63,636 bases of DNA from Candidatus Omnitrophota bacterium (GCA_041667545.1 JBAYES010000005.1:1-63636); one strand, 5' to 3'; positions 16,234-38,871 are shown, numbered from the stretch's first letter. Program-made: numbers and translations. Notes: generated by a model not told the origin, from the sequence alone.

Positions 16234-16246
16234 CAGGCAAAACAAA

Positions 16247-17872: not shown

Positions 17873-17875
17873 TAT

Positions 17876-18090: not shown

Positions 18091-18113
18091 AACTAATATC
18101 ATAAGGGGGAAAG

Positions 18114-20693: not shown

Positions 20694-21185
20694 ATGGGCG
20701 GCAGATCAAAAAAGAACCTGAGTTCGCATATGGAAGATTACCTTGAGACCATTTATGTCCTTGATAAGAAGAATGAAGCGGTCAGGGTAAGGGATATAAG
20801 CGCTTTAATGGATGTGAAAAAATCCAGCGTTAACAATGCTGTCGGGGTGCTTTCCCGGAAGGGCCTTGTAAAACACGAGAAGTATGGATATGTGGTATTG
20901 ACGGACGAAGGACGGAAGGTGTCGGCTGTTATAAAGAAGAGGCATGATCTTTTGGTAAGGTTTTTGGAAGAGATACTGGGGATAGACAGGAGCACGGCCA
21001 TCGAAGACGCCTGCAGGATAGAGCATGTTATAAGTCCCGTTACGAACGAAAGATTAAGAAAATTTATAGAGTTTGTAGATACCTGTCCTACGGGAGAAAA
21101 ACCGGAATGGCTGGAAACTTTGTACTATTATTTTGAAAAAGGCGCTCGCCCGGAACGATGCGGGAAAAGGAAGATAAAAAAATAA
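20694..21185 (+). CDS. DtxR/MntR-family metal-dependent transcriptional regulator
   Basis: MEDYLETIYVL...VRVRDISALMDVKKSSVNNAV is the typical DtxR N-terminal wHTH, followed by a dimerisation/metal-site region. Confidence 0.8.
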   Translation: MGGRSKKNLSSHMEDYLETIYVLDKKNEAVRVRDISALMDVKKSSVNNAVGVLSRKGLVKHEKYGYVVLTDEGRKVSAVIKKRHDLLVRFLEEILGIDRSTAIEDACRIEHVISPVTNERLRKFIEFVDTCPTGEKPEWLETLYYYFEKGARPERCGKRKIKK

Positions 21186-21203
21186 ATTTTTTTGCCGCAA
21201 AAA

Positions 21204-21219
21204 GTTAGATTATACTAAC
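21204..21219. promoter_or_regulatory. Second copy of the GTTAG-N6-CTAAC palindrome (putative DtxR-family operator)
   Basis: GTTAG-ATTATA-CTAAC has the same 5-6-5 architecture as 20646-20661. It lies upstream of the YezD-like ORF and the porin gene. Confidence 0.5.
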
Positions 21220-21329
21220 AAAAGTAGAGTAGCTTTAGAAAAAGGGGGCAAAAGCTATTTTTGCAGAGGTGGAAAAAGCTTAAATTCTCTTAGGGGAAAT
21301 ATGTAAATGGAAGGTAGGAAAAGAAAGAT

Positions 21330-21485
21330 ATGGATGTAAACAAATATAAAAAAGAGAAAAGAACGGATAGTATTCATGAGGAGATACTGATGTGTGTAAG
21401 AAATATAACTTTCGGGGAGGTGGTTATAACTGTACATAATTCAAAAGTAGTCCAAATAGAAAAAAAAGAAAAAAAGAGGTTTTAG
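21330..21485 (+). CDS. Small YezD/DUF2292-like protein (below the cutoff of the ORF track)
   Basis: 51-codon ORF MDVNKYKKEKRTDSIHEEILMCVRNITFGEVVITVHNSKVVQIEKKEKKRF. The FGxVxItVhxxkVvqIEkxEk pattern matches my recollection of DUF2292. Confidence 0.55.
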   Translation: MDVNKYKKEKRTDSIHEEILMCVRNITFGEVVITVHNSKVVQIEKKEKKRF

Positions 21486-21579
21486 GTAAAAGTTACCGCA
21501 CAAGCGGGACTTAAATAGAGCCATAAAAACTGTAGACCGACCGGACAACCGGAGTAGTCAGGTAGAAAGAGAGTCGGGG

Positions 21580-22956
21580 ATGCAGTTTAAAAATAAGTTA
21601 AAATGTTTTGCTGTTATGGCAATGTCAACAATGTTAATAAACAGCGCCGTTTTTGGCGATGATAGCGATCTTAACGCGGAAATATTACGGGAAATGAGGA
21701 AGATGAGAGAGCTTGTTAAGTCCCAGGGGGAAAAAATAGAACAGCTGGAAGTTAAACTTAAGCAACAGTCGAAAGAGATTACCACAAGCCGGGAGAGAAC
21801 CGATAAGAAAATAAAGGATCTGAAAAATGAAGATGTGTCGAAACATTTAAAAAGGGAATTGGCTCTTCTCGGGGAGTTCCCCGGAGGCCTTGAAATAGGC
21901 GCCGAAGCGACATTTGTAGGGCAGGGTGTGACGAACGCGAATAATGCCGGCGCCGCAGACGGAAGAAAAGACAGATTCGACGGATCCTATTCCGCCGATA
22001 TAGAAATAGCTAACAGGTTCGATGATTACGGGATGGCTTTCATCCTTTTAGAAGCGGGTCAGGGCGACGGCGTGGAGAGAGAGCTTACGGTTTTAAGTAA
22101 TGTCAACCGCGATGCCGGGAACTCCGGAGCCAGCGTAGACCTTTCGGAAGCCTGGTATGAACATTCCCTTTTTAACGGAAAGATCGCGTTTACGGCAGGT
22201 AAAATAGACGCTTCCAATTACATAGATACAAATGAATACGCCAATGACGAGACGTCTCAGTTCCTCGGGCATATGTTCCGTAATTCTGCTGTTATAGGAT
22301 GGCCGGATGATAATGCTCTGGGGTTAAGGGCTTATCTGTCTCCTGAATTCACCGATTTTCTGGACATTGAGCTGGTTTATATGGATGAAACGGGAGACTG
22401 GGAGAATCTTTTTGATAACCCGTTCCTGGCCGCTCAGCTCAATTTAATGCCGGCTAAAGTGTTTGGGTACGACGAGGAAATGTGGGGAGGCAATTACAGG
22501 GCTCTTTTCTGGTACAACGGGGCCGCTCATCCAAAAATAAAAGAACCGGATCTTCTTAAACGGGGAAGCGTAGGGTTCGGGTTCAGCATGGGTCAGAAAA
22601 TAACAGATGTTTACGGCATTTTCGGAAGGTTCGGATGGGCTTATCCTGAAAGGAACGATTTCGCGTATGACTGGTCTTGCGGCGCGCAGATGACGGGTAA
22701 GTACTGGAACCGGGAAGATGATGTTATAGCCATAGCGATAGGCCAGGTAATTCCGGGGAAAGACTACAAGGATGTCAATGACCACCACAAGGCCGAGACG
22801 CATATGGAGGCCTATTATTCTTTCAAGGTCAACGACCGCTTGACGGTTTCCCCGGACATACAGATGATATGGGACCCAAACGGGGGCGGGACGGATATGG
22901 GTAAAGACCGCAATATGATATTTGTGTATGGGGTAAGATGCCAGGCGGCTTTTTGA
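21580..22956 (+). CDS. Outer-membrane porin (OprB/carbohydrate-porin-like beta-barrel) with an N-terminal coiled coil
   Basis: Signal peptide (MAMSTMLINSAVFG), coiled-coil stretch, alternating beta-strand pattern and a C-terminal aromatic residue (...RCQAAF). Confidence 0.65.
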   Translation: MQFKNKLKCFAVMAMSTMLINSAVFGDDSDLNAEILREMRKMRELVKSQGEKIEQLEVKLKQQSKEITTSRERTDKKIKDLKNEDVSKHLKRELALLGEFPGGLEIGAEATFVGQGVTNANNAGAADGRKDRFDGSYSADIEIANRFDDYGMAFILLEAGQGDGVERELTVLSNVNRDAGNSGASVDLSEAWYEHSLFNGKIAFTAGKIDASNYIDTNEYANDETSQFLGHMFRNSAVIGWPDDNALGLRAYLSPEFTDFLDIELVYMDETGDWENLFDNPFLAAQLNLMPAKVFGYDEEMWGGNYRALFWYNGAAHPKIKEPDLLKRGSVGFGFSMGQKITDVYGIFGRFGWAYPERNDFAYDWSCGAQMTGKYWNREDDVIAIAIGQVIPGKDYKDVNDHHKAETHMEAYYSFKVNDRLTVSPDIQMIWDPNGGGTDMGKDRNMIFVYGVRCQAAF

Positions 22957-23173
22957 AAAGAAATATCGATGATAAGGCAAGGGAGATTCAACATTAGCGT
23001 TTTGTATGTTTACGGTATCTCCAGCGGACACTATGTTAAGACTTCCTCTTGACATGTTCCGGCGTGGCGTATTATAAGACATTTATGGAGAGCAAGAAGA
23101 CTCATAAGGAAAATTTAACTGCGATCAGAAGATCGGAAGATCAGGGAAAATATTATCAAATAAGGGAGCATCT

Positions 23174-23530
23174 ATGATACTCAGGATAATGGGCGTTATC
23201 ATGATGCTTTTCGGATCAGTGGGGCTGATAAGCCCGCGTATGTTCAAGGCACGTTTGCAGCGGAGAATGAACTTCAGGGTAAAGTTCATCGTATATGGGT
23301 TTATTTTAATTTTCGCGGTGTTCATATTGATAAGCGTGGTAAAAGTACAAGGAATGCTCTCCAAGATCGCCGGACTTGCTGGGCTTGTTATTACGATAAA
23401 AATTGTTATGCTGGTAACGTCGAAAAGTTCCGAGAGATTGTCGATGTGGTTTGAGAAGAGGCCCCCGATCTTTTTCAGATTGTTGGCGTTTATTGTTTTT
23501 GTAATGGGGCTCATGCTGTTTTTTGCGTAA
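23174..23530 (+). CDS. Small integral membrane protein, unknown function
   Basis: 118 aa with four hydrophobic segments. Promoter-like TTGACA / TATTAT lies upstream near 23045-23070. Confidence 0.5.
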   Translation: MILRIMGVIMMLFGSVGLISPRMFKARLQRRMNFRVKFIVYGFILIFAVFILISVVKVQGMLSKIAGLAGLVITIKIVMLVTSKSSERLSMWFEKRPPIFFRLLAFIVFVMGLMLFFA

Positions 23531-23546: not shown

Positions 23547-23608
23547 AGGACAGGCTGCTTTATTCTCCCAGTTTTTCAGGAGAGAATAAAGCAGCCTGTC
23601 CCTTTTAT
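23547..23608 (+). terminator. Strong intrinsic terminator
   Basis: Perfect 20-bp stem (GGACAGGCTGCTTTATTCTC / GAGAATAAAGCAGCCTGTCC) followed by CTTTTATT. Confidence 0.8.
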
Positions 23609-23615
23609 TACTACC

Positions 23616-23644
23616 TTGACAAAAGATGGAACGGCGTGTATAAT
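23616..23644 (+). promoter_or_regulatory. Consensus-like promoter of the Fur-family gene
   Basis: TTGACA (23616-23621), 17 nt, TATAAT (23639-23644). An AT-rich partial dyad ATTGA...TCAAT lies immediately downstream. Confidence 0.6.
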
Positions 23645-23684
23645 TGATAATGGAAACCGTTTTCAATAACGAAAAGGAGAGGAT

Positions 23685-24149
23685 ATGCCTGGAAGAGGAA
23701 GGGTTAGGCCGAGTGGATGGGGAGGAAGGTTCAGGGGGTGCGGGTACAGGATGACGGTGCCGAGGCAGGCAATAGTTGATGTCCTTAGTTCCACCGATAA
23801 GCATCTCAGCGCTGAAGAGATATATATGAAGATACACAATTCTTACCCGAGTGTGGGTCTTACCACCGTTTACAGAACTCTTGAAGTACTTTCCCATATG
23901 GGTATGGTATCCAAGTTTGATTTCGGCGACGGCAGGGGCAGGTACGAATTGAGAATGGGAGATAAAGACGAACATCATCACCACCACCTGATATGCACTA
24001 AATGCAAAAGAGTAATAAATTACACCGAGTTCATAGATGAGGAGTTGGACTTTCTCAAAAGAGCGGAAAAAGGGCTTTCCAGAAAATATAATTTCGATAT
24101 AAAGGACCATATGATACAGTTCTATGGGTTATGTGAAAAATGTAAATAG
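23685..24149 (+). CDS. Fur-family metalloregulator (Fur/Zur/PerR type not resolved)
   Basis: RMTVPRQAIVDVL...HLSAEEIY...VGLTTVYRTLEVL...HHHHHLICTKC...LCEKC (two CxxC pairs) form the Fur-family wHTH and structural Zn site. Unusual G/R-rich N-terminal extension. Confidence 0.8.
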   Translation: MPGRGRVRPSGWGGRFRGCGYRMTVPRQAIVDVLSSTDKHLSAEEIYMKIHNSYPSVGLTTVYRTLEVLSHMGMVSKFDFGDGRGRYELRMGDKDEHHHHHLICTKCKRVINYTEFIDEELDFLKRAEKGLSRKYNFDIKDHMIQFYGLCEKCK

Positions 24150-24165
24150 TAAAAATAAACGGAAA

Positions 24166-24331
24166 AGAGTTCTGCAAAATGGACTTTTATAACGTCTTTG
24201 AGAGGAACGAACGAAGTGAGAGACGAATCGATCTCAACAAATATAACAAGTTATAAGATTGCTTCGGTCCCCTGTACCGTACGGTACAGGGTCCCTCGCA
24301 ACGACGTGAAAACGCTATTTCGCAGAACCCT
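24166..24331. mobile_element. Type-B MITE-like element between the fur-family gene and the DUF5320 gene
   Basis: Termini AGAGTTCTGCAAAAT / ATTTCGCAGAACCCT. Flanked by an imperfect direct repeat, AAAAATAAACGGAAA (24151-24165) and AAAAATAACGGAAA (24332-24345). Carries the TGTACCGTACGGTACA palindrome tip. Confidence 0.75.
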
Positions 24332-24361
24332 AAAAATAACGGAAAAATAAGGAGGTGTGTT

Positions 24362-24706
24362 ATGCCGGGATATGATGGAACAGGTCCTATGGGCATGGGG
24401 CCGATGACAGGAGGGGGCAGGGGTTTTTGCGCTGTTCCCGGTTCGGACGGTTACGCGAGGCCGCGTATCGGCCGTTTTTTCGGAAGAGGCGGAGGCCGCG
24501 GCAGACGTAATATCTATTATGCTACCGGGTTAACCGGGTGGCAGAGGGCGGGAAACCCCGCATATGCGGGGGCATATCCATACGCGGCTCCCACGGTTCA
24601 GGATGAAAGGGATATCCTGAAGAACGAGGCGGAAATTCTCAAAAGAGAACTTGAAGACGTCCAGAACCGTATTGAGACGCTTGAAAAAGCCCAAAACGAC
24701 CAGTAA
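24362..24706 (+). CDS. DUF5320-family protein
   Basis: MPGYDGTGPMGMGPMTGGGRGFC is the characteristic DUF5320 N-terminus. C-terminal coiled coil. Confidence 0.7.
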   Translation: MPGYDGTGPMGMGPMTGGGRGFCAVPGSDGYARPRIGRFFGRGGGRGRRNIYYATGLTGWQRAGNPAYAGAYPYAAPTVQDERDILKNEAEILKRELEDVQNRIETLEKAQNDQ

Positions 24707-24780
24707 GGACAGACAAGGGAAGAAGGCCCTCTGTGCGGGGTCCTCTTCCCTTGATCCGCAAAAGGTAAAAGGAGAAAGGT

Positions 24781-25176
24781 ATGAGAGTAGCGATATCTAC
24801 AGATGGCGGAAGTGTATCCGCGCACTTTGGCAGATGTCCCTTGTTCACGATAGTGGACATTGAGGACGGCAAAGTAGCCGGCAAGGATGTGGTAGAGAAC
24901 CCGGGTCATCATCCCGGATTTTTACCGAAATTCCTTCATGAAAAAGGAGTGAATTGTATTATTGCCGGAGGAATGGGGCAAAACGCCATCAGCTTGTTTT
25001 CACAGCAAAAAATCGAAACGGTGGTCGGGGTCGGCGGAAAGATAGATGATGTGGTAGAGAAGATCCTGAAGGGCACTCTTGTCGGCGGAGAAAGTTTATG
25101 TAAACCACGAAGCGGAAAAGGATACGGTCTGGATAAAACAGTGTGTGACCATTCTGAAAACGATCAAGGATTCTGA
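24781..25176 (+). CDS. NifB/NifX-family (dinitrogenase Fe-Mo cofactor-binding domain) protein
   Basis: MRVAISTDGGSVSAHFGRCPLFTIVDIEDGKV...GMG. The stop codon lies inside the left terminus of the MITE at 25167. Confidence 0.75.
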   Translation: MRVAISTDGGSVSAHFGRCPLFTIVDIEDGKVAGKDVVENPGHHPGFLPKFLHEKGVNCIIAGGMGQNAISLFSQQKIETVVGVGGKIDDVVEKILKGTLVGGESLCKPRSGKGYGLDKTVCDHSENDQGF

Positions 25177-25317
25177 AGAATGGATTTTTATTCCGTCGTT
25201 GCGAGGAACGAACGAAGTGAGTGACGAGGCAATCTCAACATACACAATAAGTCATGAGGTTGTGTCGGTCGCTTTGCTCCCTCGCAATGACGTGAATTTG
25301 CTATTTTTCAGAATTCT
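25167..25317. mobile_element. Type-B MITE-like element inserted in the last codons of the NifX-like gene
   Basis: Termini AGGATTCTGAAGAAT / ATTTTTCAGAATTCT. Direct repeat ATTCTGAAAACGATCA at 25151-25166 and 25313-25328. The right boundary is ambiguous by 5 nt because the flank resembles the terminus. Confidence 0.8.
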
Positions 25318-25346
25318 GAAAACGATCATTAAAGGAGGATAATAAG

Positions 25347-25712
25347 ATGAAAGTGTGCGTTACTTCACAAGGAAAGAGTTTGGATGCTCAAGTGGATCCA
25401 CGGTTTGGGAGATGCCCGTATTTTATTATCGCGGATACGGATACAATGGAGTTTGAGGCGGTCCAGAACCCGAATGTAACCGGGATGGGCGGCGTCGGGG
25501 TTCAATCGGGGCAGTTTATGTCGGAAAAAAAAGTTAAGGTCGTTTTAACGGGCAATGTGGGGCCAAACGCTTTCAGGACTTTAGAAGCCGCCGAAATAGC
25601 CGTAATTACCGGTGTTTCAGGCAGTGTAAAAGAAGCCATTGAGCGGTATAAAAGCGGAGAACTAAAGTTGTCTGATGGAGCCAGCGTTAACTCAAAATTC
25701 GGTATGGGCTGA
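25347..25712 (+). CDS. NifB/NifX-family protein (second paralogue)
   Basis: MKVCVTSQGKSLDAQVDPRFGRCPYFIIADTD...VLTGNVGPNAF. Confidence 0.75.
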   Translation: MKVCVTSQGKSLDAQVDPRFGRCPYFIIADTDTMEFEAVQNPNVTGMGGVGVQSGQFMSEKKVKVVLTGNVGPNAFRTLEAAEIAVITGVSGSVKEAIERYKSGELKLSDGASVNSKFGMG

Positions 25713-25731
25713 TACTGAAAGAGGGGGGATC

Positions 25732-25902
25732 ATGACCGCAAAAGTAGTTGAAGCTAAGTGTACTGGGTGTGGAATTTGCGCGGAAGTATGTCCGGTCAAT
25801 GCTATAAAGATCCAAGCAAGAAAGGCCGTGGTTGATGAGAAGTGTATAGGGTGCGGGGCGTGTGAAACACAGTGCCCGGCAGGGGCTATTATAATTTGCT
25901 AA
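25732..25902 (+). CDS. Small 2x[4Fe-4S] ferredoxin
   Basis: CTGCGICAEVCP and CIGCGACETQCP motifs. Start chosen at the ATG behind GAGGGGGG. Confidence 0.8.
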   Translation: MTAKVVEAKCTGCGICAEVCPVNAIKIQARKAVVDEKCIGCGACETQCPAGAIIIC

Positions 25903-25913
25903 TATCAGGAGGA

Positions 25914-26144
25914 ATGAAAATGCCTATGGGAAATGGAATGGGGCCGTCCGGACAAGGTCCGGGAACAGGTAGAGGTATGGGGAGAGGCCGAGGAAAAGGA
26001 AGAATGGGAGGTAATCTTCCCGGGTCCGGCCCGCAAGGTGATTGCAGGTGTCTCAAGTGCAACTTAAGTGTGCCTCATAATGCCGGAATACCTTGTTACG
26101 ATATGAAATGTCCCAAATGCGGCGGGGCGATGGTAAGAGAGTAA
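25914..26144 (+). CDS. DUF5320-like glycine-rich protein with a C-terminal zinc ribbon
   Basis: MKMPMGNGMGPSGQGPGTGRGMGRGRGKG..., then CRCLKC...CPKCG. RBS AGGAGG upstream. Confidence 0.6.
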   Translation: MKMPMGNGMGPSGQGPGTGRGMGRGRGKGRMGGNLPGSGPQGDCRCLKCNLSVPHNAGIPCYDMKCPKCGGAMVRE

Positions 26145-26184
26145 GATATATTGGGAAAAAAATGTTTTTAAAAGGGGATAAAAA

Positions 26185-27528
26185 ATGGACAAAAAAACGG
26201 ATATTCTGATAGTGGGCGCGGGACCCGCGGGAGTTGTATGCGCCGGAACAGCCGGGAAATATTATCCGGGTAAGAAAATAACAGTGCTAAAAAACGTTGA
26301 GAACGGTGTTGTGCCTTGCGGGATACCTTATATGTTCTCCAGCTTAAAAAGTTGTGACGAGAATATGGCAGGAACTATAGCGCTGGAGGAAAAGGGCGTG
26401 GAAGTATTCGCGGCGCATGCGGAAGCGATCGATCGGGATAAAAAGATGTTGAGGACGAAGAACGGAGATGACTATACTTACGAGAAGCTGGTTCTGGCGA
26501 CAGGGTCTTCGCCCGTAGTGCCTCCGATCCCGGGGATAGATAAGAACGGGGTTTACCCCATATACAAGGATATGGATACGCTTAAAAGAACCACCGAAAG
26601 TGTTAAAAAGGCGAAAAAAGTGCTTATAATCGGAGGGGGGTTTATAGGGGTGGAATTCGCTGACGAACTTTCAGAAGCGAGTGACGTTAATGTATATCTT
26701 GCCGAGATGCTGCCGAGCATATTGGCTAATTCGTTTGACGCGGAATTCGCTGACCTTGCTAAAGAAAAACTGGAAGCGAAAGGAGTAGAAGTCCTTACCG
26801 GCGTAAGGGTCGAAGAGTTAAAAGGAGATAAAAATGTTGAAGAAGCGGTATTGTCGTCCGGCAGAACAGTAAAAGTGGACGCTGTTGTATTGGGGATAGG
26901 GGCCTCTCCCAATACCGCTCTTGCGGATAACACGGGTCTGGATCTGAGAAAAGGGAAAGGTATCTGGGTGGATGAATATATGAGAACCTCTGATCCCGAC
27001 ATCTTTGCTGTCGGGGACTGCGCCGGGAAAAGGGATTTTTATACCCGGAAAGATACCTTGGTAATGCTGGCTTCTACCGCGACTGCCGAGGCGAGGATCG
27101 CCGGGGCGAATCTTTACCAGCTTAAAGTCGTTCGGGAAAATAAAGGGACGATTGCTATTTATTCGACGTATGTTGACGGACTGGTGCTGGGTTCGGCCGG
27201 ACTTACTGAAGTATCGGCCAGGAAAGAAGGGTTTGAGATAGTTACGGGATGCGCGGAAATGATGGACAAGCATCCCGCCGCGATGCCGGGCGCTAAAAAG
27301 ATCAAGGTCAAGCTGATATTCTCAAAACACTCGGGGATCATAATGGGAGGACAGGTCGCGGGAGGTATGTCCGCGGGTGAAATGATAAATACCATCGGAA
27401 TGGCAATCCAGCAGAGAGTTTCACTTTCAGAATTGGAGACTTTACAGGTGGCGACACACCCCTATCTTACGAGCGCGCCCACGATGTATCCGCTTGTAGT
27501 AGCGGCTCAGAACGCTCAGGTGCTATAG
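26185..27528 (+). CDS. FAD-dependent pyridine nucleotide-disulfide oxidoreductase, CoA-disulfide reductase / NADH oxidase family
   Basis: ILIVGAGPAG dinucleotide fold, single redox-Cys motif VVPCGIPY, second GGGFIGVE fold, AVGDC. Confidence 0.8.
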   Translation: MDKKTDILIVGAGPAGVVCAGTAGKYYPGKKITVLKNVENGVVPCGIPYMFSSLKSCDENMAGTIALEEKGVEVFAAHAEAIDRDKKMLRTKNGDDYTYEKLVLATGSSPVVPPIPGIDKNGVYPIYKDMDTLKRTTESVKKAKKVLIIGGGFIGVEFADELSEASDVNVYLAEMLPSILANSFDAEFADLAKEKLEAKGVEVLTGVRVEELKGDKNVEEAVLSSGRTVKVDAVVLGIGASPNTALADNTGLDLRKGKGIWVDEYMRTSDPDIFAVGDCAGKRDFYTRKDTLVMLASTATAEARIAGANLYQLKVVRENKGTIAIYSTYVDGLVLGSAGLTEVSARKEGFEIVTGCAEMMDKHPAAMPGAKKIKVKLIFSKHSGIIMGGQVAGGMSAGEMINTIGMAIQQRVSLSELETLQVATHPYLTSAPTMYPLVVAAQNAQVL

Positions 27529-27627
27529 CGGACATATTTTACACCGTGACGGGATAAAAAATCTGAACAGATCGATCGGGGATGGAATGGTTAGACACGC
27601 AGCCGAGGCCGGCTGAAAGGGAGGGTT

Positions 27628-28446
27628 ATGCTGGACAGAAAAATCGAGGAGATCGAGCAGGACGAGCGTTTAAAAAAGAACTTATCGAAGATAAAGAACA
27701 AAGTGATAGTCATAAGCGGTAAAGGGGGAGTAGGGAAGACCACAATGGCGGTCAATTTAGCTTACAGCCTGGCTCTTAAGGGTAAGAAGACAGGAATACT
27801 GGATGTGGATATTCACGGACCGAATATAGCGAAGATGCTGGGAATAGAGAGTTCAAAATTAACGGCATCTGAAAACGGAATAGAGCCTGCGAAAGTTATG
27901 GATAATCTAAAAGCCATAAGTCTGGCGTTGATGATATCGGATAAAGACCAGCCGATAATATGGCGCGGACCGATGAAAATGATAACTATAAAACAGTTTC
28001 TATCGGATGTTGACTGGGGTGAACTTGACTACTTGATAATAGATTCCCCTCCCGGAACGGGCGATGAGCCGCTTAGTGTTTGCCAGCTTATTCCCGATAT
28101 CAACGGCGCGATCATCGTAACGACCCCGCAGGATGTAGCGGTCCTGGATTCCAGAAAATGCGTCGGGTTTGCCAGGCAGTTAAAGATACCGTCCGTAGGG
28201 ATAATCGAAAATATGAGCGGTTTTGTATGTCCGCATTGCGGGAAAGACGCGGATATTTTTGGAAAAGGCGGAGGGGAACAGGCGGCATTGGATATGGGAG
28301 TTGAGTTTCTGGGCAGGGTTTCGATAGATCTATTTATAGTCAAGTCCGCGGATGAAGGCAGGCCTTTTGTACATTTCAACAAGGAAACTGCCGCGGCCGG
28401 GGCGTTGGGAAGGATAATCGGAAAGATCGAGGAGTGGGCCAAGTGA
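27628..28446 (+). CDS. Mrp/NBP35/ApbC-family Fe-S cluster carrier ATPase
   Basis: Deviant Walker [11 protein letters not shown] and the CPHCG cluster-bridging motif. Confidence 0.85.
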
Positions 28447-29333
28447 AGACTTATCTGGACTGTATTCCGTGTTTTTATAAACAGGCGCTTGACGCTTCGA
28501 GAAAAGCCGGAGCGAGCGAGAAGACCCAGAAAAGGATACTGGATGAAGTCGCGGCTGTAATGTCGAGACTTTCTTTAAAGGCATCGCCTCCTGAGATAGC
28601 AAAATATGTATATGCCTTGGTTAGTGAGTTTTCCGGGACAAAAGATCCTTATTCGCGCGAAAAAGTGCGGAGCAATGAACTTGCCCTTGCGTTTTACGGC
28701 AGGTTAAAAAGACGGATGGTTTCATCCGGGGATAGATTATTGCTGGCGGTGGAACTGGCTATCGCGGGAAACATAATTGACTACGGCGTAAAGAACACAC
28801 TGGATATTGACAGTGAGCTTGACACAATAATAAACACGGAAGATGAGGTCATAAAAAAGGAAAGAAAATCCGTGTTTGATTATCCCGGGTTCAAGCGCGC
28901 TTTACAAAAAACAAAGGATATTCTGTATTTAGCGGACAATGCCGGAGAAGTTGTTTTTGACCGCATCCTGATAGAGGAGATCAAAAACATGGATAAAGAT
29001 AAAAAAATAACTTATGTCGTTAAAGAAAGGCCCGTTATTAACGACGCGTTGATGGAGGACGCTGTTTTTTGCGGCATAGATAAGATAGCCGATCTGGTTT
29101 CAAGCGGGTCTGACGCTCCCGGAACGGTACTTTCTTTTTGCTCGGGCGAGTTTCTGGCCATGTACAAAAAGGCCGGAATGGTCATAAGCAAAGGTCAGGG
29201 AAATTTTGAGGCACTTTCAGGGACCGAAAGGCCTGTATTCTTTTTGTTCATGGCAAAATGTCCGGTAATTGCCAGGGATATCGGCTGCAAAATAGGAGAT
29301 GTTATTTTAAAACGCCATAAGGGAAAAAGATAA
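28434..29333 (+). CDS. DUF89 (ARMT1-like damage-control phosphatase) family protein
   Basis: N-terminal CIPCF motif and the length fit DUF89. The true start may be the GTG at 28443, which makes a GTGA overlap with the mrp stop. Confidence 0.6.
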
Positions 29334-29347
29334 AGGGAGAGGGGATC

Positions 29348-29974
29348 ATGAAATACACCCCGGGATTAACGGATAGACAGATACAGGAAAATAACGATAT
29401 TTTTAATCAAAGACAGGATCTTTACAGGGCAAAAGGGCTGGATTTTCTGAAGTTCCGGAGGTTTATACTTGATAAATCGGGAACATTAACAGGAAACATT
29501 TTAGATGTCGGATCCGGGAGGGGAGTAATGGCTCTTGCCTTGGCGAGGGCGGGATATAGAGTCGTTTCTATAGACAAAAATGAGGAAATGCTGCTGACAA
29601 CAGCGCTGAACCTTGCCTATGAAAATCTACTTCCCTTGGCGGAACTTCATGTTATGGACGCGTATTCGCTTGAGTTTGCGGATGGCGGATTCGACAATAT
29701 TTTTATAGTGGAAGCATTACATCACATCGAGGATATTGACGGGTTTTTTTCAGAGATTGACCGGGTATTATCTTCCGGAGGAAAGCTCGTGGTCGCGGAT
29801 TTCAATAAGAAAGGAATGGAGATAGTGGATCTTGTTCACGGCAATGAAGGGAACAAACACGAAAATTCATTTGTGGGACAGGAGGAAGCGAAGATCTGGG
29901 TTGATCGCAACGGGTACAGGGTTAGAAGTTATGAGGATGAGTGTCATTGGGTTTTAATAGCTGATAAAAAGTAA
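29348..29974 (+). CDS. Class I SAM-dependent methyltransferase
   Basis: ILDVGSGRGVMALALA (motif I) and LVVADF. Confidence 0.75.
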   Translation: MKYTPGLTDRQIQENNDIFNQRQDLYRAKGLDFLKFRRFILDKSGTLTGNILDVGSGRGVMALALARAGYRVVSIDKNEEMLLTTALNLAYENLLPLAELHVMDAYSLEFADGGFDNIFIVEALHHIEDIDGFFSEIDRVLSSGGKLVVADFNKKGMEIVDLVHGNEGNKHENSFVGQEEAKIWVDRNGYRVRSYEDECHWVLIADKK

Positions 29975-30007
29975 AATATTTTGACCTTAATAAAGGCTTG
30001 GATCAAG

Positions 30008-30958
30008 ATGGAAGACATGGCGCGATTAATAGCGTTTGGACCGGTTCCCTCAAGAAGGTTAGGGCAGAGTTTGGGGATAAATAATATTCCGCCAAAGAGC
30101 TGTTCATATTCTTGTCTTTATTGTCAAGTTGGGCTAACCCGCGACATAACTACAGAGAGAAAAGAGTTCTATAGTGTTAATGATATTTTTTCTAAAGTGG
30201 AGGGAAAGATACGCGGAGCGAAACGTAAAGGGGAGGTAGTTGACTATCTTACTTTTGTCCCGGACGGAGAGCCCACTCTGGATATCAATCTTGGTCGAAC
30301 AATAACAATGCTCAAGCAGTTTGGGATAAAGATAGCTGTTATAACAAACGCTTCTTTGCTGTGGAAAAGTTCTGTCAGGGATTATCTGTGCCTATCTGAT
30401 TGGGTCTCTGTGAAGATCGATGCTGTCAGCGAATATTTGTGGCGAAAGATCAACCGGCCTCACAGATCCCTGGAACTTGATAAGGTATTGATGGGAATAT
30501 CGGAATTTTCAGATGTTTTTAAAGGAGAACTGGCAACGGAAACTATGTTGGTTCAGGATGTGAATGATAGCGATGAAGAGATCAAAAAGATCGCGGAATT
30601 TATATCTAAATTAAGATCCTCGACAAGTTATATCGGCATTCCCACCCGTCCCCCGGCGGGAAAAGACGTAAAAGCTCCGGGAGGGGATACGGTCAACAGG
30701 GCGTACCAGCTTTTCAGGGAGCGGGAGATAAATGTTGAATATCTCATAGGATACGAGGGGAACTCTTTTGCTTTTACCGGAGATGTTGAACAAGATCTCT
30801 TGAGTATTACAGCGGTGCATCCGATGAAAGAGGAGGCGGTAGGAAGATTTTTACTCAAAGCCGACGCGAATTGGGAGATCGTGGAAGGTCTAATAGAGTC
30901 TGGAAAACTAATGAAAGCGCGGTATAGAAATCAGAATTTTTATATGAGGAAAATATGA
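30008..30958 (+). CDS. Radical SAM protein
   Basis: CSYSCLYCQ (CxxxCxxC) near the N-terminus. The ORF opens at 29981, but the first ATG is at 30008. Confidence 0.75.
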   Translation: MEDMARLIAFGPVPSRRLGQSLGINNIPPKSCSYSCLYCQVGLTRDITTERKEFYSVNDIFSKVEGKIRGAKRKGEVVDYLTFVPDGEPTLDINLGRTITMLKQFGIKIAVITNASLLWKSSVRDYLCLSDWVSVKIDAVSEYLWRKINRPHRSLELDKVLMGISEFSDVFKGELATETMLVQDVNDSDEEIKKIAEFISKLRSSTSYIGIPTRPPAGKDVKAPGGDTVNRAYQLFREREINVEYLIGYEGNSFAFTGDVEQDLLSITAVHPMKEEAVGRFLLKADANWEIVEGLIESGKLMKARYRNQNFYMRKI

Positions 30959-31072
30959 AAATTACCGGGACCCGACCTTATGATAAAGATGGGCTTAAGG
31001 CTGATGCTGTAAAATTTTTACAAAAAAATATTATCTGAGACAGATAAAAACAGGCGAAGGCAAGGGGAGAAA

Positions 31073-32947
31073 ATGATGAACATAGTGATTTCAAGCGGAA
31101 AAGGCGGGACGGGGAAAACCTTTATCTCAACCAATATCGCGTATGTACTTGCAAAAAAAGGCGAAAAAGTGAGGTATCTTGATTGTGATGTGGAGGAACC
31201 GAACGGGCATCTTTTCCTTAAACCCGAGATAACTAAAGAGGAAGATGTTGTTCTTATAGCCCCCTCCGGAGTTGATGAAGAAAAATGCATAAAATGCGGA
31301 AAGTGCGCAGAGGCATGTAATTATAACGCCATAGCTGTTATTAATGGCAAAGTTCTGTTCTTTAACGAGCTATGCCACATATGCGGAGGTTGTAAAATAG
31401 TATGTCCCGTTAACGCTATTGTTGAAAAAGACCGTAAAATAGGGGTTATAAGGCACGGTAAAAGCGGAAAGATAGATTTTCATTACGCGCTTTTAAAAAC
31501 AGCCGAAGGGGGGATGTCGCCACGGCTTGTGAAAAAGGTAAAAGAGTGCGCCGGGGAAGGGATAAATATCCTTGATTCTTCTCCGGGAACGGCTTGTCCG
31601 GTCGTGGAAACGGTAAAAGACGCGGATCTTTGTGTTCTGGTCACCGATCCGACACCTTTTGGGATAAACGACCTTAAGCTGGCGGTGAATATGGCCAGAG
31701 AGATAGGGAAGGAGCCGGTAATTGTGGTGAACAGGGCGGAATACTACAATAATGACCTGAAAGACTATTGCGAAAAAGAGCAGCTGGAAATAATCGGGGA
31801 GATCCCTGACGACAGGAAGATAGCAGAAATATATTCCGTGGGCGACATTGTCACGGAAAAATTGCCGGAATATGAGAAGGTCTTTGAAGAAATGGTTTCC
31901 AGGATCATAGAACGCGCCGGGGCAAAAATACCGGTGAAAAAAAATAAAACAATTGAAGACGCGACCGAAAGACCCAAGCAGGATCCAGAGAGAGCGGAAA
32001 AATATAAAATACCCGAAGGGGGAGTTAAATCCAAAGAACTGGTTGTAATAAGCGGCAAGGGAGGGACGGGGAAAACGTCTATTTTGGCCTGTTTCGCGTC
32101 TTTGAGCAAGAATGCCGTTATTTCGGATTGCGATGTTGACGCGGCTGATCTTCACCTCATTCTTAGCCCCGAGATATTGCAAAGAGGGGATTTTAGCGGA
32201 GGCCTGAAAGTCGAGATAATCGGGAATAAGTGTACCGGATGCGGAAAATGTAAAGAGGCCTGCCGATTTTCGGCTATAAGAGAGAAAATGGAGGGGGGGA
32301 ACAGGAGATTTTTTATTGATCCGGTCGCCTGCGAAGGATGCGGGGTATGTTCCCTTGTATGTGAAGATAATGCCATAAAAACAGACGACGCTGTTAACGG
32401 AGAATGGTTTATTTCAGAAACTCGTTTCGGACCGATGAGCCACGCGAAACTTGGTGTTGCCGAAGAGAATTCGGGAAGACTTGTAACTTTGGTGAGGGAT
32501 AAAGCGGCCTTGCTTGGCCATGAATTTAAAAGGGACAAGGGATTGATAGACGGATCGCCGGGGACGGGGTGTCCCGTAATAGCTTCTTTGACAGGATCGG
32601 ACTACGCTCTCATAGTTACCGAACCAACTGTTTCAGGAGAACATGACATGAAACGTGTTTTGGAACTGACAAAACATTTCGGGATACCTTCCGGGGTCGT
32701 AGTAAATAAATATGATCTCAATCCGGGGATGACCGATAAGATAAAAATCGTAAGCGGGGAATATAATGCCGAATTTATCGGGGTTATTCCTTATGACAAG
32801 GTAGTTACAGAGGCTCAGATGAAAAAACTGTCGGTTGTTGAGTTCTCAAAAGGGCCTGTAACGGAAAGTATAGAAAAAATATGGATGAAGGTATCTGAAA
32901 TTTTTAAAGAACGGCAACCGGGAAGAGGCGCAAATGAACGATCATAA
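31073..32947 (+). CDS. Tandem MinD/ParA-type P-loop ATPase, with 4Fe-4S ferredoxin inserts in both halves
   Basis: [10 protein letters not shown] and [33 protein letters not shown] and [22 protein letters not shown]. Confidence 0.8.
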
Positions 32948-33260
32948 AACGATAAATGAGGCAAGAATGATTTTGGGTCTTGGTGAAAGCGCGACGATCC
33001 CCGAAATAAAAGAGGCCTATAGAAAATTGTCCTTGAAATACCATCCGGACAAATGCAAGGAAAAAGACAAAAAAAAGTATGAAGAAAAGTTCAAAGCATT
33101 GAATGCCGCTAATGAAATTCTGGTGGAATATTGCTTGAACTACAAATTTTCGTTTAAAGAAGCGTATGGCAGGGAGGGCCGGAAAGGCGGACAGATGAGT
33201 GACCATTTAAAAAGGTTTTATGACGGATGGTGGGGTGACATAGGAGAGGGAAGAGAATGA
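32934..33260 (+). CDS. J-domain (DnaJ-like) protein
   Basis: [28 protein letters not shown] contains the HPD tripeptide. Confidence 0.8.
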
Positions 33261-33940
33261 AGGACATCTTTGGAAAACATTCCCGGAGGTACGACGCGTG
33301 GTATGAAAACAACAAATTCGCGTATTTATCAGAGCTCGAAGCTATAAAGAGGTTTTTGCCGAAAACGGGAAAGGGTCTGGAAATAGGCGTTGGAACGGGA
33401 AGATTTGCCGGTCCCTTAGGGATAAAATGGGGGATAGATCCTTCGGAAAAAGTTTTGAAAATAGCCCGGGAAAGAGGGGTGCGTGTGCGGAAAAGTCATG
33501 GGGAAAAGTTGCCCTTCAGGAACAATACTTTTGATCATGTGGTTTCTATCGTTACCTTAAGTTTTGTAAGATCTCCCGCAAGGGTAATTCAAGAAGCGGA
33601 ACGAGTTCTAAAGAGAAACGGAAAAATTATCATAGGGATAGTCCCGCGGGAAAGTTTTCTCGGGAAAAATTACCTGAAAAAACGGGGACTGTTCTACAAG
33701 GCAGCGAACTTATTGACACCCGAAGAGGTTAAAGATTTTTTGAAGGCATCCGGGTTCGAGGATATTTCGTTTTGTCAAACCATTTTCGTTTTACCGTCTA
33801 AAATGAGATCGGTCCATAAGGTTTCGGAAGGTTATGCGAGAGGCGGTTTTGTAGTGATACGAGCGAAAAAACACGACAAGGGTCAAAAAACATCTAGCGA
33901 CGATCTCTATAGGAGGGAAAAGCATGAAAGACCTGATTAA
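33257..33940 (+). CDS. Class I SAM-dependent methyltransferase (second)
   Basis: [11 protein letters not shown] motif I. ATGA overlap with the J-domain gene. Confidence 0.7.
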
Positions 33941-34307
33941 TGATTTTTTGAAACAGAAAAGTTTTGCTGTTGTGGGGTCATTTAGGAGTGAGAGCAAATA
34001 CGCTTATAAGATCTTAAAGGATCTGGTAAAAAAGGGACACGAGGTTTTCCCCGTTAACCCCAATTTAAGCGAAGTGGAGGGGAGAAAGTGTTATAAAAAA
34101 CTGTCAGATATACCTTCTAAGGTCGATGTTGTTGATATTGTTACCCCGCCGCCTGTTACCGGGAAAATAGTAAGGGAATGCCTGGAAAACTCCATTAAAA
34201 GAGTGTGGCTTCAGCCCGGGGCTGAAAGCGAGGATGCAATAAGGTTCTGCCGCGATAATGGCATAGACGTGATTTACGGGATATGTCTGATGTTAGAGAG
34301 TGAATAG
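33924..34307 (+). CDS. CoA-binding domain protein (YccU/YneT-like)
   Basis: 127 aa with FAVVGSFR...KYAYKI...VFPVNP...VDIVTPP, the typical CoA_binding_2 pattern. Confidence 0.7.
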   Translation: MKDLINDFLKQKSFAVVGSFRSESKYAYKILKDLVKKGHEVFPVNPNLSEVEGRKCYKKLSDIPSKVDVVDIVTPPPVTGKIVRECLENSIKRVWLQPGAESEDAIRFCRDNGIDVIYGICLMLESE

Positions 34308-34368
34308 AGGGCAGGATCCGCCCTGCTCTCCGGATATCTGGATATCCTCCTCAAAGGATGCGAAAAAG

Positions 34369-35286
34369 ATGCTTATTTTTAACGCGAAAACCGGTATAGC
34401 TGAAGATGTAGAACCTGTAGTAAGGCCTGAGGCTGAATGGAAAAAGATACTTACCCCGGAACAGTACCGCGTTACCCGCAAAAAGGGGACAGAGGCGCCA
34501 TTTACAGGTAAATGTGAAAAAGCCCGGAGCGGAGGAATATACAAGTGTATTGCCTGCGGGACTGACCTTTTTAGAGCAAGAGCAAAATTTGAATCCGGCA
34601 CAGGATGGCCCAGTTTCGGGGAACCTGTTTCCGAAATGAATATAGTGGAACAACCTGATAACAGCTTGGGAATGAGCCGCATAGAAGTTATGTGCGCCCG
34701 ATGCGGCGCTCACATGGGACATGTGTTCAGCGACGGGCCTTTTCCCGCAAAGAGGCGATATTGCATAAACTCAGTAGCGGTAAAGTTTGTTCCGGAAGAT
34801 AGCGATAAAAATAAAAGAGAACCGGCCATTTTTGCCGCGGGATGCTTTTGGGGAGTGGAAGAGACTTTCAGGACCATTAAAGGCGTTGTCTCAACAATAG
34901 CGGGATATGCGGGCGGGAAAACTGCCGGACCGACATATGAGGAAGTCTGTACGGGCGGGACGGGACATGCCGAGGCCGTGAAAATAGAATATGATCCTTT
35001 ATTGATATCCTATGATGATCTGCTCGATGTGTTTTGGCGAATGCATGATCCGACAACTCCGGACCGCCAGGGCCCGGACAGAGGGACGCAGTACCGCTCA
35101 GCTATTTTCTGCGCCAATGAAGAGCAGAAAGACGCGGCTATAGCGTCGAAAGAAAAACTTGCAAGATCGGGGCTATACAAGCACCCTATAGTAACCGGGA
35201 TAACCTTGTCCTCAGAGTTTTATCCGGCCGAAGAATATCACCAAAAATATTACATGAAGCGCGGCATTGAAGGCTGTTCACGTTAA
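34369..35286 (+). CDS. msrBA: Bifunctional methionine sulfoxide reductase MsrB-MsrA fusion
   Basis: MsrB motifs: YKCIACGTDLF, GWPSF, CARCGAHMGHVF. MsrA motifs: AGCFWGVE, GHAEAV. Start set at the ATG behind AAGGA; the ORF opens at the GTG at 34300. Confidence 0.85.
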   Translation: MLIFNAKTGIAEDVEPVVRPEAEWKKILTPEQYRVTRKKGTEAPFTGKCEKARSGGIYKCIACGTDLFRARAKFESGTGWPSFGEPVSEMNIVEQPDNSLGMSRIEVMCARCGAHMGHVFSDGPFPAKRRYCINSVAVKFVPEDSDKNKREPAIFAAGCFWGVEETFRTIKGVVSTIAGYAGGKTAGPTYEEVCTGGTGHAEAVKIEYDPLLISYDDLLDVFWRMHDPTTPDRQGPDRGTQYRSAIFCANEEQKDAAIASKEKLARSGLYKHPIVTGITLSSEFYPAEEYHQKYYMKRGIEGCSR

Positions 35287-35307: not shown

Positions 35308-35424
35308 GGGCCGAAGCAATCCCTCTCCGAAATATTTTCATATTTTGAGATCACTTCGTCGCCCCCTTCGGGGGCTCCTCGTGACGACGGCGTAGGATTC
35401 TACTGCAGAAGACTGAAATGTTAC
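35308..35424. mobile_element. Half copy of the type-A MITE-like element (inverted orientation)
   Basis: ...GAGATCACTTCGTCGCCCCCTTCGGGGGCTCCTCGTGACGACGG...GACTGAAATGTTAC is the reverse complement of the left arm of the 11666 and 15915 copies. Confidence 0.7.
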
Positions 35425-37937: not shown

Positions 37938-38777
37938 TTGAAAAAAGGAAGGACAGCGGTGAAGTTCAGAAGCTGGATGTCCCGGGAACCCCGAGGGGCT
38001 ATAGTCCTCATACATGGAATGGGCGCGGGCACGGAAAGGTGGGAAAGCCTCGCGCGGTATTTTCTGGCAAAGAATATCTCTTCCTATGCTCTTTCCCTTC
38101 AAGGTTTTGACGGGACTCCCGGCGAGAAAGGGTATGTGGATAGTTTTGAAACTTACCATGCCGATATAAAAGAACTTTTTGATGCCGCGAGGCGGGATGT
38201 TCCGGAAGGGCGCATATTTCTTCTCGGGGAAAGCATGGGAGCCGTTATTGCCTTTGATATCGCTTCCCGGCTTCGCTGTCATTTTGACGGATACATACTT
38301 ATTTCTCCGGCTTTCGGCAGTAAACTGAAGTTTTCCCCGATCACATATCTCGAGATCATGATATCTATGGCGGTTTTCCCCAGAAAACAGTTCCGCATGC
38401 CTTTTACCCCGCAAATGTGCACGAGCGACAGCGATGAATCTGATAAAATAAATAAGGATCCCGCGGAACACCGGTATGCCACCGGCCGTTTGCTTTGGGA
38501 AATATTCAAAAGACAGGTTACGGCCCCGATATCGGCGCGAAAAATAGATTCAAAGATTCTTTTTCTTTTATCCATGAACGATGAAATAGCCGACCCCAAA
38601 AAAAGCATTCAAATATTCAAGAAGATCAAAAGTGCCGATAAGACCATTAAGACGTATCCCGGAATGAGGCATGCCCTCTCGGTGGAAGCTGGCAGGGAAA
38701 AGGTTTTTGAGGACATATTAGAGTTCTGCGAAATGGACTTTTATTCCGTCGTTGCGAGGAACGAACGAAGTGAGTGA
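37938..38777 (+). CDS. Alpha/beta hydrolase (lysophospholipase / monoacylglycerol lipase-like) with a MITE-encoded C-terminal tail
   Basis: HGMGAG, nucleophile elbow GESMG, late HA. The last ~19 codons (...[19 protein letters not shown]) are read from the type-B element starting at 38719. Start codon uncertain (TTG at 37938, ATG at 37977). Confidence 0.7.
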   Translation: MKKGRTAVKFRSWMSREPRGAIVLIHGMGAGTERWESLARYFLAKNISSYALSLQGFDGTPGEKGYVDSFETYHADIKELFDAARRDVPEGRIFLLGESMGAVIAFDIASRLRCHFDGYILISPAFGSKLKFSPITYLEIMISMAVFPRKQFRMPFTPQMCTSDSDESDKINKDPAEHRYATGRLLWEIFKRQVTAPISARKIDSKILFLLSMNDEIADPKKSIQIFKKIKSADKTIKTYPGMRHALSVEAGREKVFEDILEFCEMDFYSVVARNERSE

Positions 38778-38871
38778 CGAAGTAATCTCAATAAATACAA
38801 TAAGTTATAAGGTTGCTTCGGTCGCTTCGCTTCCTCGCAATGACTTGCAAACTCTATTTCGCAGAACTCTA
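38719..38871. mobile_element. Type-B MITE-like element at the 3-prime end of the hydrolase gene
   Basis: Perfect symmetric termini TAGAGTTCTGCGAAAT / ATTTCGCAGAACTCTA. Only a degenerate flank similarity (TGAGGACATAT versus TGAGACGTATAT). Confidence 0.8.

Follow-up and report, generated by a model that had tools for sequence, protein, structure and literature searches.

An extended orange protein gene cluster headed, and probably repressed, by its own Fur-family regulator in a Candidatus Omnitrophota bacterium

The window analysed here is a stretch of 63,636 nt from a Candidatus Omnitrophota bacterium, and our subject is a gene cluster on its plus strand, at 23616-35286, which opens with the gene of a Fur-family regulator. 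Gene identities were taken from the list of open reading frames (ORFs) and from Pfam and NCBIfam scans of the window proteins. The cluster consists of the Fur gene and 15 further plus-strand ORFs, the last of which ends at 35286. An initial annotation of this DNA had described a 17-gene same-strand cluster; the shared strand stands, and the count is 16, with 17 reached only if the fused MinD-ferredoxin (MinD-Fd) gene is counted twice. All the families that were named in it were recovered by Pfam in the same order. Directly ahead of the Fur gene lies the predicted consensus promoter, a sigma-70 element of the form TTGACA-17-TATAAT (23616-23644, plus strand) that agrees with the consensus at 12/12 positions, and this architecture is repeated in the relative L082 (L numbers denote the loci compared). 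Upstream of the promoter, RNA folding and sequence reveal an intrinsic-terminator-like hairpin (23548-23601, plus strand), with a 21-bp stem followed by CUUUUAUU.

By protein sequence comparison, the core of the gene set is the ORP (orange protein) cluster that has been described in Desulfovibrio. There, the ORP complex includes Orp3/4/5/8/9, MrpORP and OrpR, and MrpORP (Orp9) holds a bridging [4Fe-4S] cluster and passes iron-sulfur (Fe-S) clusters to Orp3/Orp4 in vitro (PMC6345978, PMC8359166). The core set is thus a named complex with a literature, and the earlier statement that it has no assigned pathway cannot be kept. Two genes of the window encode NifX-fold (Nitro_FeMo-Co) proteins. NifXb (25347-25712, plus strand; PF02579, 88 bits) has a single-domain Nitro_FeMo-Co fold and finds its best PDB match in 2WFB, the ORP of Desulfovibrio gigas (E 3.6e-19), as expected of an orange protein (Orp8) homologue. 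NifXa (24781-25176, plus strand) aligns with positions 265-365 of the NCBIfam MrpORP model at 102.6 bits, and its motifs HFGRC, NPGHHPGFLP and CDH are those of MrpORP's Di-Nase domain, namely HFGxC, a proline-rich stretch and CDH (PMC6345978). The Mrp/NBP35 ATPase (27628-28446, plus strand; PF10609, 317 bits) covers positions 1-249 of the same MrpORP model at 362 bits, with the deviant Walker A motif GKGGVGKT and a CPHC motif; the N-terminal Cys motif of MrpORP is absent. The window thus has no two-domain MrpORP, its halves being separate, non-adjacent genes that each score below the equivalog cut-off of 450 bits. In our reading, Mrp would be the P-loop half and NifXa the Di-Nase half of a split MrpORP.

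The doubled MinD-Fd protein (31073-32947, plus strand), identified by Pfam, motifs and a structure model, joins two paralogous MinD-like P-loop halves, 32% identical, in one chain of 624 residues. Each half carries a Walker A motif and an inserted 2x[4Fe-4S] ferredoxin domain, giving four CxxCxxCxxxC motifs in all, and Cys38, Cys175, Cys353 and Cys500 are invariant and might form a bridging cluster. Because paralogous halves with Walker A and 2x CxxCxxCxxxC match the description of Orp3 and Orp4 in the literature, the protein can be read as the equivalent of an Orp3-Orp4 fusion. An exact database look-up of the fused protein returned no match; in the 80 loci compared below, the gene is fused in 52 and split in 28. 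Its predicted structure (pLDDT, a per-residue model confidence, 71.5) comes closest to MinD, FlhG, ApbC, NifH and CooC, and ArsA is the sole structural match that spans both halves. The model confirms only that the protein belongs to the MinD/Mrp/NifH/ArsA class.

Two smaller proteins may correspond to further Orp components. The DUF5320 protein of 114 residues (24362-24706, plus strand; PF17253, 90.8 bits), with an N-terminal MPGYDGTGP...GRGFC, an RG-rich middle and a coiled-coil-like C-terminal tail, probably stands in the Orp7 position. The Gly/Arg-rich protein of 74 residues (25920-26144, plus strand, from the ATG at 25920) has a DUF5320-type N-terminus, matched weakly by PF17253, and six C-terminal Cys (CxCxxC...C...CxxC). 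It has 63 detectable homologues, one of which, in a delta-proteobacterial metagenome-assembled genome (L127), follows directly on a pair of unfused MinD-Fd genes; a genuine two-domain MrpORP, a NifX/DUF5320 fusion and DUF89 are encoded there as well. The Cys-rich protein is therefore a candidate Orp5 equivalent. Since its homologue occupies the Orp5 position and the Orp5 homologue of Desulfovibrio alaskensis G20 binds [2Fe-2S], the "zinc ribbon" first ascribed to this protein may instead be an Fe-S site. The fusion in L127 (5245-5808) has 187 residues, lies beside the two-domain MrpORP and unites DUF5320 with a domain of the NifX fold. In the manner of a Rosetta stone, it hints at joint action of DUF5320 and NifX-fold proteins.

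The first gene of the cluster encodes a Fur-family repressor of 154 residues (23685-24149, plus strand), with 114 bits to PF01475 against a cut-off of 23. It carries the Fur-type motifs HHHHHLIC and CxxC...CxxC, and its sequence shows HHHHHLICTKCK and LCEKCK. Among PDB entries the best match is the Fur protein 9IRE, at 112 bits, versus 64 bits for PerR 2FE3. The NCBIfam models rank it likewise, with Fur best at 141 bits and PerR at 94 bits (cut-off 180), and here every Fur, PerR and Zur equivalog score, that of Fur included, lies below its cut-off. A 7-1-7 inverted repeat, TGGAAACCGTTTTCA, that is TGGAAAC-C-GTTTTCA (23651-23665, plus strand), begins 7 nt past the -10 element, so as to overlie the predicted transcription start. 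No other strong site exists in the 63.6 kb, this one scoring 21.4 against 14.0 for the runner-up; this second match, at 11331 and inside a coding region, was rejected as an operator.

The operator is backed by a phylogenetic footprint, by independent loci and by a known consensus. In a first set, an inverted repeat just past the -10 element is found in 9/9 clustered GTDB Fur loci as well as in the window, so in 10 Fur promoters, and yields the 7-1-7 consensus TGAAAA(C/T)-N-ATTTTCA. The GTDB loci hold 30 such boxes in 1.17 Mb, nearly all intergenic before fur, DUF5320, NifX, Mrp or MinD-Fd genes, and these include loci where fur is out of range. An independent set was obtained by reversing the anchor: a search with only the Fur protein gave 46 metagenome loci (45-81% identity), none of which had entered the box matrix. 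Here 58 boxes occur in 337 kb, where shuffled sequence gives 0.2; 38 of them lie within 150 bp upstream of fur (38/43 loci), 19 in the spacer after fur and 1 elsewhere, so that 57/58 stand at the two expected positions. An identical consensus defines the dFUR box WTGAAAATNATTTTCAW, a motif obtained in 2004 from sequences upstream of feoAB and fur in delta-proteobacteria (Rodionov et al., PMC545781).

The reverse-anchored loci also show what this regulator is encoded with. In 32/37 loci fur is followed by a DUF5320 gene, and in the remaining 5/37 by a different orp gene. Counted in the 22 Fur-anchored loci with at least 5.5 kb downstream, DUF5320, NifXa and NifXb are each present in 21, MinD-Fd in 18, the CoADR-like gene in 13, methyltransferase 1 in 11 and the ferredoxin in 10; the CoA-binding gene is present in 6, each time directly before CoADR between two MinD-Fd genes, and MsrBA in none. 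The orp-linked Fur clade is always encoded beside orp genes, and with operator and adjacency both conserved across loci, the suggestion that the Fur-family gene belongs to the cluster as its cognate regulator is borne out. Because the operator is the dFUR box and the best scores favour Fur over PerR, we take the regulator to be a putative iron-type Fur repressor, rather than a peroxide sensor, that would autoregulate and control the orp operon. Of the earlier label "metal/peroxide regulator", the metal half agrees with this reading and the peroxide half is not supported. The operator type and the sequence similarity suggest Fe2+ as a putative co-repressor. One further observation concerns the family: L087 encodes, at 289-700, a distant Fur-family paralogue with 29% identity, 1.3 kb upstream of the orp-linked fur, which suggests that more than one Fur-family regulator is present in these organisms.

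Other lineages place other regulators on the same genes. The window itself has no homologue of a sigma-54 enhancer-binding protein (EBP) such as OrpR and no TGGCAC-N5-TTGC site. An OrpR-like PAS-sigma-54 activator accompanies the orp module in eight loci of Acidobacteriota, Planctomycetota and Chloroflexota (L045, L054, L061, L065, L072, L074, L078, L080), and DUF134 does so in Pelotomaculum and other Bacillota (L037, L040, L051, L053, L059, L063, L068, L070). The regulator is thus swapped on one conserved module, being OrpR, Fur or DUF134 by lineage.

Classical Fur proteins begin near the DNA-binding helix. The regulator of the window has an N-terminal extension, MPGRGRVRPSGWGGRFRGCGYR (23685-23750, residues 1-22), and the orp-linked clade as a whole (L098, L099, L102, L126 and others) has about 20 extra residues, with FRGCGYR in 37/45 unique sequences (residues 16-22 in the window). 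Part of the clade begins with MPxxDGTGP(W)WHG. MPxGDGTGP is also the signature N-terminus of the DUF5320 proteins that the same operons encode, where it is found in 60/66 sequences of the long form and 13/16 of the short Cys-rich form and is followed by Gly/Arg and Cys. Additionally, positions 1-22 of the Pfam DUF5320 model align to residues 1-21 of two such regulators, though only at E 0.1-0.3. The shared tag is a lead rather than an established homology; it suggests that the regulator and the DUF5320 proteins may have a partner, a ligand or a modifying enzyme in common.

The conservation of the whole neighbourhood was assessed with MinD-Fd as the anchor. We collected 80 loci from GTDB species representatives of many phyla, archaea included, among them Omnitrophota, Aminicenantes, Spirochaetota, Planctomycetota, Bacillota, Acidobacteriota, Chloroflexota and Thermoplasmata, and counted over those 59 whose flanks reach 8 kb or more, searched with all window proteins. 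NifXb is present in 39, Mrp in 32, NifXa in 30 and DUF5320 in 29, in line with the remark that subsets of this gene set recur. They are followed by radical SAM (S-adenosylmethionine) in 21, DUF89 in 18, the ferredoxin in 15, the small Cys-rich protein and methyltransferase 2 in 11 each, Fur in 10, CoADR-like in 9, methyltransferase 1 and the J-domain protein in 5 each, CoA-binding in 1 and MsrBA in 0. The flank genes (OprB, the 118-residue protein, FecR-domain and HD-GYP) are found in 0/59, and the DtxR/MntR-type regulator has weak matches in 3/59 and none at strict thresholds. A single-copy gene would fall within a 20-kb window of a 3-Mb genome by chance in less than 1% of cases, and so all genes except CoA-binding, MsrBA and the flanks lie far over chance. 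The genes are functionally linked, then, and are not coincidental neighbours: the core and most accessory genes recur, and the flanks do not.

Radical SAM, DUF89, the methyltransferases, the J-domain protein, and CoADR with its CoA-binding partner accompany the core in different phyla. The same families emerged when all locus ORFs were clustered without bias. This clustering also returned recurrent neighbours that the window lacks, namely an MBL-fold protein (20 loci), a 218-residue protein (15), an ABC ATPase (12), a third methyltransferase (9), DUF134 (8), the OrpR-like PAS-sigma-54 activator (8), IscU (7), Zn_ribbon_8, YggS and a thioredoxin fusion. Of these, the MBL-fold and 218-residue proteins, IscU, DUF134, EBP, Zn_ribbon_8, YggS and the thioredoxin fusion were found nowhere in the window.

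The accessory genes, assigned by Pfam and NCBIfam unless stated otherwise, are all on the plus strand. After NifXb comes a 2x[4Fe-4S] ferredoxin of 56 residues (25732-25902, with the true ATG at 25732). The CoADR/Nox-like flavoprotein (Pyr_redox_2; 26185-27528), akin to CoA-disulfide and persulfide reductases, has, as predicted, a single redox Cys, the active-site Cys45 in VVPCGIPY, and its closest solved relatives in the PDB include the Pyrococcus CoADR and CoA-persulfide reductases. The CoA_binding_2 protein (33924-34307; Pfam) had been listed as an independent member and is better described as the partner of CoADR. In L007 and six metagenome loci (L093, L095, L096, L098, L106, L124) its gene immediately precedes that of the CoADR-like protein, and the pair is enclosed by two unfused MinD-Fd genes; in the window, where the ATPase genes are fused, 6 kb separate the CoA_binding_2 and CoADR-like genes. 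The next gene after Mrp encodes an ARMT1/DUF89 protein (28434-29333), resembling metal-dependent phosphatases and named a damage-control phosphatase in NCBIfam. Phosphopantetheine derivatives are substrates of some DUF89 enzymes, and this would fit a CoA theme.

SAM-dependent methyltransferase 1 (29348-29974) is followed by a COG0731-like radical SAM protein of a highly conserved family, whose ORF opens at 29981 and whose homologues begin at M13, giving 30017-30958. No solved sequence relative of the radical SAM protein was found, and its AlphaFold model (pLDDT 78) gives only generic matches, with TM-scores (template modelling scores) of ~0.5 to methyltransferases, the pyruvate formate-lyase activating enzyme, RlmN and NifB alike, for which reason we leave it without an assigned function. 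Behind MinD-Fd lie a J-domain protein with an HPD motif (32934-33260) and SAM-dependent methyltransferase 2 (33257-33940); in other loci the J-domain gene is always accompanied by methyltransferase 2 (5/59). The last gene encodes an MsrB-MsrA fusion (34300-35286). It overlaps the preceding gene and is probably co-transcribed with it in the window, but with 0/59 and 0/22 loci it drops out of the conserved set, and is a lineage-specific passenger.

Most junctions in the cluster are tight or overlapping. Four gaps are wider, at 212, 170, 114 and 99 bp. Of these, the largest two had been attributed to insertions of miniature inverted-repeat transposable elements (MITEs), correctly: both are filled by copies of one repeat family, with terminal inverted repeats, a long-hairpin fold and flanking direct repeats. 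Copy 1 (24168-24331; repeat comparison and fold) lies in the fur-DUF5320 junction, flanked by the direct repeat AAAAATAA(A)CGGAAAA. Copy 2 (25167-25314; repeat comparison) sits in the last codons of the preceding NifX-fold gene, with the direct repeat TTCTGAAAACGATCA. A third full copy is at 38718-38870, and a fourth, near 47310, has an internal deletion that leaves just its two ends. In the relative L082, the distance from the fur stop to the DUF5320 start is 18 bp, free of MITE and with the same ribosome-binding context; MITE 1 was therefore inserted into a tight operon junction.

Co-directionality by itself is not specific to the cluster. Shared strand is no proof of an operon, because about 30 successive plus-strand genes run through 16.3-44.2 kb, and the limits of the cluster were set by the terminator hairpin at 23548-23601 and by conservation. 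The genes upstream are RecQ and, at 20694-23530 just before fur, a DtxR/MntR-type regulator, an OprB-family porin and a small membrane protein of 118 residues; downstream follow a FecR-domain protein, an HD-GYP-type protein, a hydrolase and glycerol genes. None of these neighbours is kept with the cluster in the wider GTDB loci, except that OprB, and sometimes DtxR, holds its position upstream of fur in close relatives (L082, L083, L091, L092, L107, L117). An OprB-type porin is predicted in the Geobacter Fur regulon (PMC545781), and no Fur box was found ahead of the OprB porin in the window.

Some further features of the window may be recorded. A hairpin with a 16-bp stem and no U-tract lies at 24714-24753, between DUF5320 and the first NifX-fold gene; it could affect transcript stability, but its z of -1.84 against shuffles is not significant and it is missing in L082. 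The window is unusually rich in further short intergenic repeat families, MITE-like or resembling repetitive extragenic palindromes (REP), for example at 121-206, 11666-11910, 15915-16234, 17871-18111, 35328-35424, 44315-44411, 49282-49446, 51568-51650 and 61275-61515, and one copy stands directly after msrBA. A tandem array at 53105-53229 repeats the 25-nt unit GGGCCTCAGGATAACCGGGTGGAGC about five times. Farther upstream are the [FeFe]-hydrogenase maturase HydF (13081-14325, minus strand) and an ACR3/SBF-type transporter with a low-molecular-weight, ArsC-like phosphatase (16688-18545, plus strand), which fit an anaerobic lifestyle.

Measured against the ORP system of Desulfovibrio (D. vulgaris Hildenborough and D. 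alaskensis G20), the window shares the orange protein, the two MinD-like ATPases with 2x[4Fe-4S], the Mrp/NBP35 with deviant Walker A and CXXC, and the Di-Nase domain with HFGxC, proline-rich and CDH motifs, with its small Cys-rich and DUF5320-type proteins as candidate counterparts of Orp5 and Orp7. Both belong to anaerobes, and in both the clustered genes would be co-regulated by a cluster-encoded regulator that represses itself. However, Orp3/4 are fused in the window (624 residues) and MrpORP is split into non-adjacent genes. Whereas Desulfovibrio has two divergent sigma-54 operons and uses OrpR, the window has a predicted single unidirectional sigma-70 operon, with a Fur-family repressor and a dFUR-type box instead. 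Nine genes are extra: the ferredoxin, CoADR-like, DUF89, the two methyltransferases, radical SAM, the J-domain protein, CoA-binding and MsrBA.

With the iron Fur of delta-proteobacteria (PMC545781) the window shares the operator consensus, the 7-1-7 symmetry, a box over the regulator's own promoter, the His/Cys motifs and a nearby OprB-family porin, as in the predicted Geobacter regulon. The delta-proteobacterial targets are feoAB, porins and flavodoxin, not orp, whereas the Fur of the window is the first gene of an orp operon and has the extra N-terminal FRGCGYR / MPxxDGTGP extension. The suf system of Escherichia coli offers an analogy only: it too is an Fe-S machine with a P-loop ATPase under Fur repression, but there is no SufBCD, SufS or SufE homology and no cysteine desulfurase in the window, which has Mrp, MinD and NifX-fold proteins instead. 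Both NifX-fold proteins belong to the IssA/NifX/NafY/NifB-C-terminal family (IPR003731), whose members hold thioferrate, NifB-co, FeMo-co, Mo-Cu-S or [3Fe-4S] without classical ligands. They differ from IssA in lacking the cationic C-terminal tail and from NifB in lacking a radical SAM fusion, and no nif genes are near.

Taken as a whole, we hold it to be rather probable that the region is one sigma-70 operon, an extended ORP system headed and repressed by its own Fur-family regulator. Its products would then serve the iron-responsive trafficking of Fe-S or metal-sulfide clusters. In such an operon, the Fe2+-loaded regulator would bind the box and block initiation; when iron or a cluster-derived signal drops, fur and the whole operon would be derepressed, a case of negative autoregulation with a logic akin to the Fur-repressed suf of E. 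coli. The products would form an ATP-driven machine that receives, holds or stores, and delivers Fe-S or other metal-sulfide clusters. Mrp would hand clusters to the MinD-Fd ATPases, as MrpORP of Desulfovibrio does in vitro, and the NifX-fold proteins would hold clusters bound non-covalently. The CoADR-like enzyme and its CoA-binding partner could keep CoA thiol or persulfide reduced, or supply sulfide, the J-domain protein could recruit Hsp70, as HscB does for IscU, and MsrBA would be a local add-on. A dedicated role in metallocluster assembly or repair, which the initial annotation proposed, is a related inference; for dedicated assembly, no NifB-, NifEN- or NifDK-like component was found in the window and the radical SAM protein cannot be assigned.

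A bolder version rests on the N-terminal tag. The regulator might be a new Fur-type sensor of the state of its own machine, and the extended ORP system, given also the CoADR / CoA-binding pair set between the ATPase genes, a feedback-controlled pathway specific to anaerobes that traffics or repairs Fe-S or metal-sulfide clusters and in which CoA-bound sulfur replaces the cysteine desulfurase. The tagged regulator could share a partner with the DUF5320 proteins (a NifX-fold or MinD-Fd protein, the methyltransferases or radical SAM), on which it would dock, from which it would accept a cluster or by which it would be modified. We regard this version as a long shot.

Several points weigh against the Fur-repressed ORP operon as we read it. 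The direction and the effector of regulation are drawn from the behaviour of the family. In Desulfovibrio, orp is switched on at low redox potential via OrpR, not by iron limitation, and it is counter-intuitive that an Fe-S-rich machine should be induced under iron scarcity. Within the 63 kb of genome seen here, the Fur protein may be the cell's general iron regulator, merely encoded in the operon. The gaps of 99 and 114 bp, or the two MITE hairpins, could split the unit into several transcripts. Additionally, the order and content of the accessory genes vary by lineage, with the MBL-fold protein, IscU and the 218-residue protein missing from the window, and the literature describes the function of ORP as 'unclear' or 'putatively cell division' (PMC6345978, PMC8359166).

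Other explanations of the same genes have to be set beside this one. The operon could build a new metallocofactor in a nitrogenase-like manner, with SAM enzymes modifying it, NifX-fold proteins carrying it and NifH/MinD-like ATPases inserting it into a target. The component types do mirror NifB (radical SAM with a NifX domain), NifX/NafY and NifH; radical SAM recurs in 21/59 loci, NifB structures are among its top Foldseek matches with the highest identity, 19-21%, and NifH is among the structural matches of the ATPase halves. Yet the radical SAM match is generic, with TM ~0.5 across several classes, there is no NifB, NifEN or NifDK signature in NCBIfam or Pfam, radical SAM and the methyltransferases are missing from many orp clusters, the Desulfovibrio type included, and no target-enzyme candidate is conserved nearby. 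We consider such a pathway unlikely, though worth keeping in mind. Nitrogenase cofactor assembly as such was rejected: no protein matched the NifB, NifE or NifN models, and the window holds no nif genes, which agrees with the earlier remark that nifHDK is absent near the cluster.

The closest folds of each MinD-Fd half are MinD and FlhG (1HYQ, TM 0.70 normalised to the target), and they invite a reading as a positioning or cell-division system, in which MinD-like ATPases with C-terminal amphipathic helices would organise a polar or septal complex and the Fe-S clusters would be redox sensors. The literature adds morphology defects without OrpR, a polar MrpORP and amphipathic helices in Orp3/4. 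That division role is itself a hypothesis in the literature, however, and the neighbourhood consists mostly of cluster carriers and redox and SAM enzymes, not of division genes; IscU recurs in 7 loci, and an iron-type Fur box suits metal homeostasis better. It strikes us as improbable. Still harder to credit is a PerR-type peroxide sensor with the operon as its oxidative-stress repair regulon, made of CoADR/Nox, MsrBA and Fe-S repair, even though the CoADR/NADH-oxidase-like flavoprotein and MsrBA share the direction of transcription and PerR regulators are often encoded beside their targets (PMC545781). Fur is preferred over PerR by 141 to 94 bits in NCBIfam and by 112 to 64 bits in the PDB, the HHHHHLIC motif is Fur-like, and MsrBA is never conserved with the cluster. 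PerR identity was rejected at 94 bits against the cut-off of 180, with an operator that is an iron dFUR box and unlike any PerR box in PMC545781.

The core, as an ORP cluster, is of a known kind. In the literature searched, nothing pertinent turned up on DUF5320 or on COG1149/COG1433, and no description was found of a link between Fur and orp, nor of the Fur-headed sigma-70 form, of a Fur clade and operator tied to orp in several phyla, or of the tagged regulator, the fused and split architectures and the conserved accessory set. The ORP system is conserved across anaerobic bacteria and archaea, and its function has been open since 2011. Testable handles on it are now the placing of orp genes, in several phyla, behind an iron-type Fur operator in an operon that fur opens, a tag shared by the regulator and DUF5320, and a defined accessory set. 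Fe-S biogenesis in strict anaerobes is little understood; the results presented here show the exchange of regulators, OrpR, Fur or DUF134, on one conserved module.

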